A stretch of DNA of 12,529 bases from the IMG/VR virus record IMGVR_UViG_2671180699_000002; one strand, given 5' to 3'. The translations under genes and the position numbers were made by a program. Numbering within the stretch: position 1 is the stretch's first letter; each line of letters opens with the position of its first letter. A model generated the notes under the pieces. The model saw only the letters and a list, made by a program, of their open reading frames with translations. It did not search any database and had not been told where the DNA came from. Positions 1,633-7,775 of this stretch are shown here, piece after piece. The DNA is from a virus (lineage: Duplodnaviria > Heunggongvirae > Uroviricota > Caudoviricetes).

Positions 1633-1788
1633 TTACTCCTCAGGTTCGTAAGCTGTGAAGACAGCGACCTCCGTCTGGCCGGTTCGGATTCGTACCTCGC
1701 AGAGGTCTTTCCTCGTTACCAGTGCCGTCACTATGACGGTTAAACAGATGACGATCAGGGCGATTAACATCGCCTTTTGCTGCTTCAT
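1633..1788 (-). CDS. hokD: Hok-family type I toxin (small membrane-depolarising peptide), 51 aa
   Basis: Hand translation of the minus strand gives MKQQKAMLIALIVICLTVIVTALVTRKDLCEVRIRTGQTEVAVFTAYEPEE, which matches my recollection of E. coli HokD/RelF. ATG at 1788..1786, TAA at 1635..1633, SD AAGGAG about 10 nt upstream. The ORF is under 60 aa and so absent from the supplied track. Confidence 0.93.
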   Translation of the reverse strand: MKQQKAMLIALIVICLTVIVTALVTRKDLCEVRIRTGQTEVAVFTAYEPEE

Positions 1789-2046
1789 AGCCTGCTTCTC
1801 CTTGACCTTTCGGTCCGTAAGAGGCTAATCTCTATGTGTCGCATAGATATGGCCTCAGATTAATGTTAAGCGTCTTGCAGGACGCGTAATGTTAACTGGG
1901 GCTTTTCTCTATCTGCCTTTTGGTGTTCATGCCTGAGACAGATAGCCTCAAGCACCCGCAGTCATTCTACTTAACTAAGATTTCCCCGCAAACCGTTTTT
2001 GTCCGGCACAGTAAATATCCAACTAAACCAATGGCGTTCGCTGTAT
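1789..2046 (-). promoter_or_regulatory. hok mRNA leader region (about 260 nt) with a coupled upstream ORF and a long hairpin
   Basis: Non-coding stretch between the stop of the 59-aa membrane gene and the hok ATG. Contains a 19-codon uORF (1844..1785) whose TGA overlaps the hok ATG (ATGA), and an imperfect hairpin at 1821-1856 that covers the uORF start codon. Confidence 0.5.
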
Positions 2047-3154: not shown

Positions 3155-3511
3155 TTATTCAGTTCTGGATTTTGTCGCCCTGCGTATCCGCGCTTTCGCG
3201 TTACGCTCAATCTGAATTAGCTTTTCTATATTTTTTCGCCTTTCCCGCTCCTCCTGACGCAAGAGCCTTACATCATCTGCCAGTCTGGTTTCTCTTTTCG
3301 CCACAGAGAGCATCCAGTCAAATGGCTCCACAACTGCACCGCAGATTTTACAGCGGACCTGACGCTCTTTTTCGTCAACCCGGACAGAGGCGTGATGACA
3401 ATATGGTCTTTCCGATGGCTCATAAAGAAAATTAACCTGATTACGAGGGTCATCCTCTTTTACCGGAAATAAAACGATATTGCTTAACTCATCCTCTGGT
3501 TTTATTTCCAT
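3155..3511 (-). CDS. Hypothetical protein, 118 aa, with Zn-ribbon-like Cys/His motif and basic coiled-coil C-terminus
   Basis: ATG at 3511..3509 preceded by AAGGAGAGGAG. An alternative GTG start at 3568 (137 aa) also has an AGGAGG about 11 nt upstream. Motif YCHH...CKICG; C-terminal R/E/K-rich helix. Confidence 0.65.
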   Translation of the reverse strand: MEIKPEDELSNIVLFPVKEDDPRNQVNFLYEPSERPYCHHASVRVDEKERQVRCKICGAVVEPFDWMLSVAKRETRLADDVRLLRQEERERRKNIEKLIQIERNAKARIRRATKSRTE

Positions 3512-3568
3512 GCTCCTCTCCTTTGATGCGAATGCCAGCGGTAATTGAAGCCTGATAGCTAATTTCAC

Positions 3569-3991
3569 TCACAGTACCGCCTCCTGAAAATTACCCTGAT
3601 AGAAAGCCAGTACACGCTGCATAGCTTCACTCTTCCGGCACTCGCGACAGATTATGTTTAGGCGACTGTCGTAGCGACGTATTTCTCCGTCAGGTGATGA
3701 CCAGATAAGGTCCGGATCAACCACAGCAGGTTTCTTCACCTTTGCCCTCGAGAGTTTTTTGCGGGCGTTTTGCCAGTCCTTACGCGCCTGTTCAGAGGGG
3801 AATAACCCGTAGCCGGAGTTGTATACATCGCCGCTGGCAACCAGCTCTCTTGCGAGAACGCTCATCAGATATCTTGTCGCACCTGTCTTGACTTCCAGTT
3901 GCCGTAACGTCTCACGCCCACTCTGGCGTACGAGTTCAACAACCTGCCCTTTAATTTTTTCTCGCTCTTCTTGTGTAAAAACTTTTGCCAC
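3569..3991 (-). CDS. Hypothetical protein, 140 aa, with probable N-terminal winged-helix/HTH DNA-binding region
   Basis: GTG start at 3991..3989 with AGGAGGG 4-5 nt upstream; stop TGA at 3571..3569. Sits immediately downstream of the O-like gene, where a helicase loader is normally found, but is too short and has no Walker motif. Confidence 0.7.
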   Translation of the reverse strand: MAKVFTQEEREKIKGQVVELVRQSGRETLRQLEVKTGATRYLMSVLARELVASGDVYNSGYGLFPSEQARKDWQNARKKLSRAKVKKPAVVDPDLIWSSPDGEIRRYDSRLNIICRECRKSEAMQRVLAFYQGNFQEAVL

Positions 3992-4031
3992 AAGCCCTCC
4001 TGAAAATTACCTCATGACCAGAAATCAACAC

Positions 4032-5102
4032 TTACCCCCTGAAGCCCGGTGGAATTTCGGTATCCGGTTCAGAAATATGATTCACACAACGCTGGTTGTT
4101 CGTGCCGCTTACCGGGAGCAACCAGGGGTTCTCAAAATTCCGGTCCGGTCCAAAAAACGTCGTCGCTCGCTGAACAAATTCCGTTCCCGTTTTCCCGGTA
4201 GCCGCCAAGTATCTTGCGTAACGCCTCACGCCATCCAGCATGGCCTCTGGTGGCACCCCCTCGCGTAATCTGGCCTTCCAGGCACTGAAAGCGGATTTCT
4301 TCGGGTTTGCTCCGGCACGCAACGGGTACTCCCGCCAGACCTGTTCGAACACATCCGGATAATCCACTCGTCCCACAGACAGCCCGGTGTTTTCCGGGAC
4401 TACCCGATCGGCTTCCCGCTGAATGGCGGAATCGGCTTCAGGCTGCTGCAGTTGGTGTGATTGCTCCGGCCTTGGGGTCATCACCTGCTGCACAGCGCCC
4501 GAATCGGCTTTCAGCGCATACGCTGAATCGGCTTCCGGTGTCGTGCCTGCTGGCTGACCAGGATTGACGGTCTGAACATCCCCTGCCTGGTTCGTGGCGT
4601 TTTTTACGCCATGGACCATAGTGTTTTGATCTTCTTGATCTGTATCTTTATCTGTATCTTTATCTGTCGTGACTCGTCGTGACATGTGCGTGACATTTCG
4701 TGACGCGCCGTGACAATCGCCATTTTGTTCCCGCTTTCTTTCCCTCTCTCGCTGCGCCCTCTTGCGCTCTGCCGGAGATTTTGCGGTTTGCGAAATATTG
4801 CCGTTGTCCTCTTTCAGCACCTGGCGTTTTTCCCATCCAGTGATTAAATCACCATCAAGTACCCGCCCCTGCATCGTCTGCAAAATTGAATCAATTACCT
4901 CTTCTGTCACGTCGAGCGCACTTGCCAAATCTTCTGTCGTGACATCAATGTGACCTCGCGTGACATTTCGTGACGCGCTCACCAGGAGGTGGATATACAC
5001 TGCCATCACTGTTGCAATTGGCTGCCCTGACACCCTGGCAATTGTTCGCCACTTAGGGTCATTTGGCATGTCATGCCATAATCTGAGCCAGGCGTTAGCC
5101 AT
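4032..5102 (-). CDS. Phage replication initiation protein (lambda O-like replisome organiser) containing the probable origin
   Basis: ATG at 5102..5100 with GAGGTGAGT SD (the track ORF starts 2 codons earlier at a GTG). Position after cro/cII; iteron-like CGTGAC repeats and an AT-rich tandem repeat lie inside the coding sequence; acidic, repetitive mid-protein linker (DKDTDKDTD). Confidence 0.85.
   Translation of the reverse strand: MANAWLRLWHDMPNDPKWRTIARVSGQPIATVMAVYIHLLVSASRNVTRGHIDVTTEDLASALDVTEEVIDSILQTMQGRVLDGDLITGWEKRQVLKEDNGNISQTAKSPAERKRAQRERERKREQNGDCHGASRNVTHMSRRVTTDKDTDKDTDQEDQNTMVHGVKNATNQAGDVQTVNPGQPAGTTPEADSAYALKADSGAVQQVMTPRPEQSHQLQQPEADSAIQREADRVVPENTGLSVGRVDYPDVFEQVWREYPLRAGANPKKSAFSAWKARLREGVPPEAMLDGVRRYARYLAATGKTGTEFVQRATTFFGPDRNFENPWLLPVSGTNNQRCVNHISEPDTEIPPGFRG
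4637..4672. repeat. AT-rich tandem repeat, 12-bp unit ATCTGTATCTTT (2 full copies plus a partial third) inside the O-like gene
   Basis: Direct inspection of 4637-4672; encodes the DKDTDKDTD linker; immediately adjacent to iteron cluster A. Confidence 0.85.
4668..4714. repeat. Iteron cluster A: five direct CGTGAC repeats spaced 10-11 bp (candidate ori)
   Basis: CGTGAC begins at 4668, 4678, 4689, 4699 and 4709. One-helical-turn phasing inside the initiator gene, as in lambda ori. Confidence 0.75.
4938..4978. repeat. Iteron cluster B: four (C/T)GTGAC repeats spaced 10-11 bp, including a 21-bp exact copy of part of cluster A
   Basis: Repeats begin at 4938, 4949, 4959 and 4969. GCGTGACATTTCGTGACGCGC is identical at 4688-4708 and 4958-4978. 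Confidence 0.7.
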
Positions 5103-5173
5103 ACTCACCTCTTCTGATACCGAATCTTTTTACTCACGAGTTGCCGGAAGCGATTCGATATGGCTATTGTCAG

Positions 5174-5599
5174 TCAATGTACTGCCACAGCATTTCCTGC
5201 CGGGCCACCACGGTTCATCTGATTGAAACCGGCGATTGCCACTGCGACAAAATCATCAGCGTCTCTCACCAGTCGCTCCCGCGTCTCCACCAGCTCCCGA
5301 AAATAAGCTGAACTGTGGCTGCGCATTCTGGCCACCAGCAAAGGTGGCATTGCCTTTTCGATCGCTGGTAACAACGCCTGAATTTTTTCAACTGCATCAG
5401 GGGTGTCTTTCTCTACCCAGCGGAAAATTTTCTGGGTATTGCGAGCCAGGGCTTCCGGATGGCTGTCGTCATACAGTTCCGGGAACGTCATTCCCAGCTC
5501 GAAATACGCTTTGGTAATTTTCGCAGCCGGTACTTTTTCGCCGTCCGGATGCGCCCAGGCATTCATCGCCATGCGGATGTGTTCATGCTTGATTTTCAT
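5174..5599 (-). CDS. CII-like / YdaT-family regulatory protein, 141 aa
   Basis: ATG at 5599..5597 overlaps the TGA of the cro-like gene (ATGA). N-terminus MKIKHEHI resembles my recollection of Rac YdaT, recalled as a functional CII analogue. Position cro - cII-like - O-like. Confidence 0.75.
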   Translation of the reverse strand: MKIKHEHIRMAMNAWAHPDGEKVPAAKITKAYFELGMTFPELYDDSHPEALARNTQKIFRWVEKDTPDAVEKIQALLPAIEKAMPPLLVARMRSHSSAYFRELVETRERLVRDADDFVAVAIAGFNQMNRGGPAGNAVAVH

Positions 5600-5826
5600 G
5601 AATCCCCCCCTTGGTTAGAAGGCGGATTATGATCAGAACCGGGAATGACAACCGTCGGTATGTGTAACTCATATTTGAGCGCCCCGGCAGTGACTGCCTG
5701 AATTAGCAACGCCCATTTCCACGGAACCTCTTCCCCCCACATGCTGACTGTGGTTTTTGACGTTCCTAGAGCTGCGGCTGTTTTAACAACTCCGCCAAAA
5801 TAGCCTAATACTTCTGATTTTTTCAT
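5596..5826 (-). CDS. Cro-like HTH repressor (DicC/YdaS family), 76 aa from ATG 5826
   Basis: Divergent from the CI-like gene. GGAG precedes ATG 5826; an alternative ATG at 5838 would add MERL. The pattern resembles DicC as I recall it, but is not identical. Confidence 0.8.
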   Translation of the reverse strand: MKKSEVLGYFGGVVKTAAALGTSKTTVSMWGEEVPWKWALLIQAVTAGALKYELHIPTVVIPGSDHNPPSNQGGDS

Positions 5827-5838
5827 GAGTCGCTCCAT

Positions 5839-5917
5839 AAAACTGAACGTCAAAAGTTTAATAATCAAAACCAAAGAAAGTCAAGAAACAAAACCATCTG
5901 TGTTTTAAAATCAAAAC
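5839..5917. promoter_or_regulatory. Divergent immunity switch (PR-like and PRM-like promoters with candidate operators)
   Basis: Two 16-bp near-identical sites, GTTTAATAATCAAAAC (5856-5871) and GTTTTAAAATCAAAAC (5902-5917), each with inverted GTTT(T)/AAAAC half-sites. A minus-strand TTGACT (5884..5879) and TATTAA (5863..5858) pair is a candidate PR. A plus-strand TAAAAT (5906-5911) sits 6 nt before the cI ATG, which has no SD. Confidence 0.55.
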
Positions 5918-7722: not shown

Positions 7723-7775
7723 TTTCTGGTGACGTTTGGCGGTATCAGTTTTACTCCGTGACTGCTCTGCCGCCC
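7723..7775 (+). ncRNA. dicF: DicF small regulatory RNA (cell-division inhibitor; base-pairs with ftsZ mRNA)
   Basis: The sequence TTTCTGGTGACGTTTGGCGGTATCAGTTTTACTCCGTGACTGCTCTGCCGCCC matches my recollection of the 53-nt DicF RNA. It ends in a GGCGG...CCGCC hairpin followed by TTTTT, and sits between ydfC and dicB as in Qin. Confidence 0.88.

Follow-up and report, generated by a model that had tools for sequence, protein, structure and literature searches.

The 16-nt sequence GGTAATTTTCAGGAGG occurs twice on the minus strand of the window (the whole stretch of 12,529 nucleotides that was analysed), at 4011..3996 (copy 1) and at 3595..3580 (copy 2), with a match of 16/16. It is probable that the two copies are separate, ordinary translation-initiation regions at mosaic gene boundaries, the second of which couples lygF to the frame that follows it. 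Copy 1 would act as the leader of lygF, providing a stop-like TAA, a U-run and an AGGAGG, followed 4 nt further on by GTG 3991. At copy 2, the Gln-Glu codons of lygF would double as a Shine–Dalgarno (SD) sequence 7 nt before GTG 3572, and ribosomes ending lygF, or recruited by the SD of copy 2, would start the next frame at this GTG. The coupled frame appears to be a 27-codon Ea22-like remnant ending inside the phrog_1621 gene, which has its own SD and an ATG at 3511. The 16/16 identity would then be a by-product of the commonest leader allele lying beside the commonest tail allele, and has no demonstrable function of its own. Ribosome initiation at both copies, and coupling at copy 2, are inferred here from comparison of related sequences. 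The positions of both copies given in the initial annotation are confirmed.

Both copies lie in the early-right operon of a Rac-like (Rac/Qin-like) E. coli prophage. Its genes, encoded by the minus strand, are a P22-Cro-like gene (5874..5596), a cII/YdaT-like gene (5599..5174), an O-like/YdaU-like replication initiation gene of 358 aa (5108..4032; phrog_3729, E=2e-256), the 140-aa lygF with a GTG start (3569..3991; DUF977, PF06163, E=4e-28; phrog_142, E=2e-47) and a zinc-ribbon gene of 118 aa (3155..3511; phrog_1621) starting at ATG 3511. A cI-like repressor gene lies on the strand opposite to this run of genes from cro to lygF. Near-identical loci carry the same annotation in several E. coli phages, where the replication gene is annotated as 'DNA replication protein O' or 'primosomal protein I' and the product of the 140-aa gene is named LygF; the family label of the latter is 'Ren-like' (phrog_142) and it is winged-helix-like. 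A search of the literature on LygF and DUF977 returned no functional data, just the prediction of a winged-helix DNA-binding fold (PMC2686095). A scan of the minus (coding) strand between 3100 and 4200 returned no promoter-like or terminator-like sites, which fits a single, putative polycistronic mRNA. Elsewhere in the window, Rfam matches to the antitoxin RNA sok (1786-1957, minus strand, 106.7 bits) and the sRNA DicF (7724-7775, plus strand, 76.7 bits) mark it as a Qin/Rac-type prophage with a hok/sok module. The replication gene contains repeats of its own. An exact 21-nt direct repeat, GCGTGACATTTCGTGACGCGC, is found at 4688-4708 and 4958-4978, 270 nt apart. Both copies encode ASRNVT, and 45 related loci keep the repeat with a spacing of 270 or 271. 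It may represent a repeat at the protein level or, by analogy with lambda O, an iteron-like origin sequence within the initiator gene. The same gene also contains an imperfect direct repeat of 36 nt (75% identity), at 4407-4442 and 4503-4538, where the peptide PEADSA is repeated.

The lygF sequence is widespread, being matched in ~3,400 of 5,426 complete E. coli genomes. This figure is the sole use made of a search of these genomes with artificial deletion and duplication junctions, in which the normal halves, 416 bp apart, were merged into one place and hybrids were inseparable from normal loci. In a scan of genome contigs, lygF loci were found in Escherichia and Shigella only, apart from contigs of metagenome-assembled genomes (MAGs) assigned to Collinsella, Bacillota and Veillonella (L132, L133, L135, L136), which carry lygF at 90-95% identity to the gene of the window and are most likely mis-binned Escherichia prophage contigs. 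A protein word-index search listed 120 homologues, all at 88% identity or above; the diversity discussed below was taken instead from representative and alignment-driven locus searches.

Copy 1 (3996..4011, minus strand) is located within the 40 nt that separate the replication gene (stop codon at 4034..4032) from lygF. It consists of a TAA (4009..4007), a U-run and AGGAGG (4001..3996), and is followed by GCTT and then by GTG 3991, giving an AGGAGG-to-GTG spacing of 4 nt. The sequence offers at least 5 nt of complementarity to the 3' end of 16S rRNA, and the start codon 4 nt on matches the N-termini of homologues: in relatives ATG and GTG replace one another at this same position, ahead of a conserved MAKVF... 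N-terminus. A leader of the form RGTRATTT(T)CAGGAGGNCTT, followed by ATG or GTG, precedes lygF behind at least five different upstream genes in relatives. Together these comparisons indicate that the AGGAGG of copy 1 is the SD used for GTG 3991; copy 1 had been described as lying just before the GTG of the 140-aa gene, and this description stands, with a spacing of 4 nt and a conserved start. Against the proposed explanation, a distance of 4 nt between SD and start is short.

The remainder of the leader is variable in its relation to the upstream gene. In two other contexts the TRA of the leader is the true stop codon of that gene (AAG TGA TTGCCGGAGG... and AAG TAA TTTCAGGAGG...), and the U-run ranges in length from 3 to 6 across contexts. 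In the window, a mini-ORF, ATG AGG TAA (4007..4015, minus strand), ends at the TAA of copy 1, which occupies the position of the upstream-gene stop in other prophages (ydaW-type AAG TGA, or AAG TAA). In related phages DnaC-like and DUF1627 genes are found between the replication gene and lygF, and the present locus, in which the replication gene adjoins lygF, may therefore be a deletion derivative.

Copy 2 (3580..3595, minus strand) is of a different nature, forming lygF codons G-N-F-Q-E. It is read GGT AAT TTT CAG GAG GCG, followed by GTA CTG TGA, in agreement with the earlier statement that it lies inside the 3' end of the 140-aa gene and encodes GNFQEA. Its AGGAGG (3585..3580) stands 7 nt before GTG 3572, which overlaps the stop codon of lygF in a GTGA (3569..3572, minus strand): the TGA occupies 3571..3569 and the GTG 3572..3570. 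The tail FY(Q/R)GNFQE(V/A)xx* belongs to the DUF977 family and is kept to ~40% identity. An FY(Q/R)G.F.QE C-terminus is retained in DUF977 homologues at 43-67% identity (P0154, P0138, P0126), and more distant members (29-39% identity) keep only remnants of the FY(R/G) type.

The nucleotide sequence of the tail points to constraint on the embedded SD. All 27 distinct tails of this type (class A), from loci selected independently of the 16-mer, keep AGGAGG-N7-GTGA, in which the GTGA is invariant. The wobble base of CAG is kept in 27/27 and that of GAG in 25/27 of these distinct tails, whilst the Gly wobble (position 3 of the 16-mer) is T in 12, G in 10, A in three and C in two, and the Asn wobble (position 6) is also variable. 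With the CAG and GAG wobbles fixed and the Gly and Asn wobbles free, only the SD half of copy 2 appears to be constrained at the nucleotide level. A second class of LygF tail, FYQG(D/N)VRYLLK* (class B; L002, L141, L086 and others), has the same length as class A (FYQGNFQEVxx*) and is collinear with it at the nucleotide level, and is without the SD. The DNA 3' of class B tails is non-coding or holds a gene on the opposite strand, and no coupled gene follows. The presence of the SD is thus tied to that of a coupled ORF (Fisher p=6e-7), in a set of loci which are phylogenetically non-independent and so closely related that the conservation statistics overstate their independence. From these comparisons, the lygF tail would seem a clean example of an SD kept in coding sequence only where a coupled gene follows.

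In relatives, real genes begin at the GTG overlapping the stop codon of lygF. They belong to at least four unrelated families, of 77-192 aa: a rac19-like protein of ~100 aa (VRVRVYIAGPMTG...), a methyltransferase (VSAPATILDMCCG...), an 84-aa protein and a 192-aa Ea22-like protein, which is full-length at the GTGA in one locus (L037). Starts at this overlapping GTG are already annotated for the rac19-like gene, the methyltransferase and a 'kinase' fragment in Rac-SA53, PhiR42_1 and 683R6. An SD with GTGA also starts an Ea22-like gene in ArgO145, where it lies behind an unrelated upstream gene devoid of the 16-mer; coupling in this gene region is thus predicted to be independent of the 16-mer.

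In the window, GTG 3572 opens an ORF of 27 codons, VSEISYQASITAGIRIKGEEHGNKTRG* (3489..3572, minus strand), overlapping lygF by 4 nt and the phrog_1621 gene by the first 20-23 nt of the latter. Its first ~11 codons match the N-termini of Ea22-like proteins, VSKINYQAL... in L037 and VSKIDYQEL... in ArgO145 gp18, and the final 16 correspond to the C-terminal end of ArgO145 gp18 (...NWLAGIRIKGEEHGNKTRG*), which overlaps the ATG of the phrog_1621 gene exactly as in the window. These matches at both ends suggest that the ORF is the in-frame remnant of an Ea22-like gene which has undergone an internal deletion. It is found in ~30 distinct related loci, and may be no more than what a deletion left behind, or may work as a translational relay.

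The initial annotation had instead placed copy 2 just before GTG 3568 (3566..3568, minus strand), as an alternative start of the next gene, and had described an identical SD context before two consecutive GTG codons. AGGAGG is indeed present at both, but the spacing is 4 nt at GTG 3991 and 11 nt at GTG 3568, and GTG 3572, at 7 nt, is better placed to use copy 2. The phrog_1621 gene itself appears to start further downstream. In the 137-aa ORF, position 1 of the phrog_1621 profile falls on residue 20, the ATG at 3511; the phrog_1621 homologue ArgO145 gp17 starts at the same ATG behind different upstream DNA; and homology to the copies in Stx phages begins at ~3540. Together these place the gene start at ATG 3511, which is preceded by an SD of its own (GGAGAGGAG, 3521..3513). 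The extension of 19 codons from GTG 3568 has no counterpart in phrog_1621 or in ArgO145 gp17, and the codon at this position in relatives is mostly GTG, ATG in some and GTA or GCG in others. A codon-level comparison of substitution patterns between GTG 3568 and GTG 3572 drew on little diversity among relatives. Although GTG 3568 may be used occasionally, it is unsupported as a start beyond this type of junction, and is unlikely to be the main start of the phrog_1621 gene or the one that copy 2 serves. Annotations in which the zinc-ribbon gene begins at the GTG that immediately follows the stop codon of lygF, as in the deposited record ON470612.1 (L001; 2433-2846, equivalent to window 3155-3568), are probably 19 codons (57 nt) too long.

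If each copy can be accounted for by its own initiation region, it remains to consider the identity between them. The repeat is exactly 16 nt long and does not extend into the flanks. No third copy was found in the window with up to two mismatches allowed, and two matches to GGTAATTTTCAGGAGG were obtained in 0/200 shuffles. For an exact 16-nt direct repeat within 600 nt, the random expectation is ~0.002 per window, which upholds the earlier view that chance alone is unlikely; however, exact direct repeats of 16 nt or longer, with both copies inside 600 nt, form 15 further families in ~0.53 Mb of non-redundant related prophage sequence. Such repeats are non-random, yet they are not rare in real prophage DNA. 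The identity nevertheless weighs against the proposed explanation, since 10 further bases (GGTAATTTTC) are identical beyond what an SD needs, with an unaided chance of ~1e-6 per pair. These ten bases may reflect either an old duplication or coincidence under similar constraints. With a stop codon (TAA), a U-rich spacer and an SD all needed in the leader, and G-N-F-Q-E encoded together with an SD in the tail, the chance of a match should be well above 4^-10. The functional reading is the same whether duplication or coincidence is responsible.

Such a historical duplication, though on balance doubtful, is the alternative with most in its favour. The leader of lygF would descend from a lygF-type 3' tail, for example through a tandem lygF whose upstream copy was later replaced, and the 16-mer would be residual homology. 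As a proposal about origin only, it can hold alongside the functional explanation. The identity of the copies over 16/16 positions is what it would predict, and behind several upstream genes the leader retains a GTRATTT(T)CAGGAGG core, whilst GCTT after the SD is common to some leader and tail variants. There is also weak extra similarity to the left of the copies (TTTCT..TCA..G; anchored alignment p=0.02-0.11). However, local alignment gives no significant similarity between the flanks (p 0.84 and 0.91), the SD-to-start spacing is 4 nt at one copy and 7 nt at the other, and neither a tandem lygF nor a tail–leader hybrid was found in IMG/VR. Moreover, since the TRA of the leader is elsewhere the stop codon of the upstream gene and the U-run varies from 3 to 6, the likeness at the level of the family shrinks to a stop, a U-run and an SD.

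The distribution of the 16-mer bears on the more active roles that might be proposed for it. In a scan of IMG/VR, at least 141 exact occurrences were found in at least 120 loci. Among the matches listed, 138/141 fall into two lygF contexts only, the other three being unrelated sequences. The first context (...TCATGA, the 16-mer, then (G/A)CTTGTGGCAAAAG) is the leader between the replication gene and lygF, and the second (...TT(C/T)TATC(A/G)G, the 16-mer, then N7-GTGA) is the 3' end of lygF. The 16-mer is absent from any other gene start in the window. A search for it at gene boundaries of related prophages had been proposed, and there it is present, but among the matches listed only in the two contexts of lygF; its confinement to the two ends of lygF indicates that it is no portable cassette. 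Exact leaders are found paired with SD-less class B tails, and Rac-type leaders (AGTGATTGCCGGAGGCGCTT) with the exact tail. In a sample chosen independently of the motif, exact leader was paired with exact tail nine times against ~6 expected (p=0.13). Leader and tail alleles assort independently, and the copies are unlinked. The earlier suggestion of a shared translation-initiation or regulatory cassette thus survives in so far as there is an SD at both copies, the use of which is indicated by comparison; the sharing itself is contradicted by the lygF-only distribution and the lack of linkage.

A second alternative, that the 16-mer is a boundary (linker) sequence which helps lambdoid or Rac-like phages to exchange the lygF module by homology, or lets lygF be excised and inserted through recombination of one copy with the other, appears improbable. 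In Megablast comparison with other phages, homology is interrupted at window positions 4000, 3595/3594, 3581 and 3580, which are the outer edges of the copies, and the DNA outside each copy (left of copy 1, right of copy 2) varies with the neighbouring gene, as would be expected of a linker. These breakpoints are also gene boundaries, however, where selection alone concentrates surviving junctions, and many leader contexts are too diverged to support homologous exchange. In addition, 16 nt is shorter than the homology usually needed for recombination. Recombination between the copies should leave hybrids in which sequence from the left of one copy is joined to sequence from the right of the other, and there were none among the 138 listed occurrences inspected. 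Likewise, the deletion product TCATGAGGTAATTTTCAGGAGG-N7-GTGA (an 'empty site' with one repeat copy) and the tandem-duplication hybrid pattern each gave 0 matches in 2.9 million viral contigs.

Short conserved boundary sequences have been proposed to account for module exchange in lambdoid phages, the literature holding both views of mosaic junctions, boundary sequence and selection (PMC3029335). The lygF repeat resembles the lambdoid boundary sequences outlined there (refs 21-22 in PMC3029335) in being a short sequence at the edges of mosaic modules, with breakpoints at those edges. It differs from them in that the 16-mer is not common to different junctions, the exact motif being found among the IMG/VR matches listed at lygF junctions only, in that no recombinant between the copies was found, and in that one copy is coding. 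As for the scar of a modular recombination junction that had been suggested, mosaic breakpoints do lie at the outer edges of the copies, but copy 2 is ancestral lygF coding sequence and hybrids number 0 in the 2.9 million viral contigs.

The arrangement also invites comparison with target-site duplications and with the repeats that flank morons, for here too identical short direct repeats bracket most of a small accessory gene. By contrast with those systems, copy 2 lies within the conserved C-terminal codons of lygF, no empty site with a single copy was found, and lygF is without a transposase or integrase or the promoter/terminator pair typical of morons. An insertion scar or target-site duplication is ruled out by copy 2, which encodes the conserved DUF977 C-terminus and is collinear with the class B tail.

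A broader combination of these ideas, in which the repeats bracket a lygF cassette and short-homology recombination (for example of the prophage RecET/Red type) gains or loses lygF whilst leaving an SD for the next gene, or in which LygF or an RNA binds both copies, is considered very unlikely. Least credible of all is a regulatory site at which one factor (LygF, with its predicted winged-helix DNA-binding fold (PMC2686095), or an sRNA) binds both 16-mers and co-regulates translation of lygF and the next gene: the identical sequence at two initiation regions would suit it, but positions 3 and 6 vary freely in the tail copy, the leader and tail alleles are independent, with many genomes pairing an exact copy with a very different partner, and at the 16-mer there is no complementary sequence, no Rfam match at either copy and no RNA structure signal (z-scores 0.07 and -0.53).

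The reading of the two copies as separate initiation regions, by comparison, requires nothing that is not familiar from other operons. Coupling by an overlapping ATGA or GTGA, with the SD inside the upstream gene, is found in many phage and bacterial operons. The lygF junction conforms to this pattern, with AGGAGG in the last codons, 7 nt before a GTG overlapping the TGA, an arrangement that is kept whatever gene follows and in which the synonymous sites of the SD are conserved. It departs from the pattern in that the putative coupled frame is only a 27-codon remnant relaying into the start region of the next gene.

Taken together, the junctions of this widespread prophage locus appear to be an ordinary case of initiation led by an SD, with coupling through stop/start overlap. 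A cassette or regulatory role for the repeat, if true, would add only slightly to models of lambdoid mosaicism, and the evidence argues against it. What the analysis does provide is a set of likely start sites for an E. coli prophage locus that is very common, a result with little import beyond annotation.
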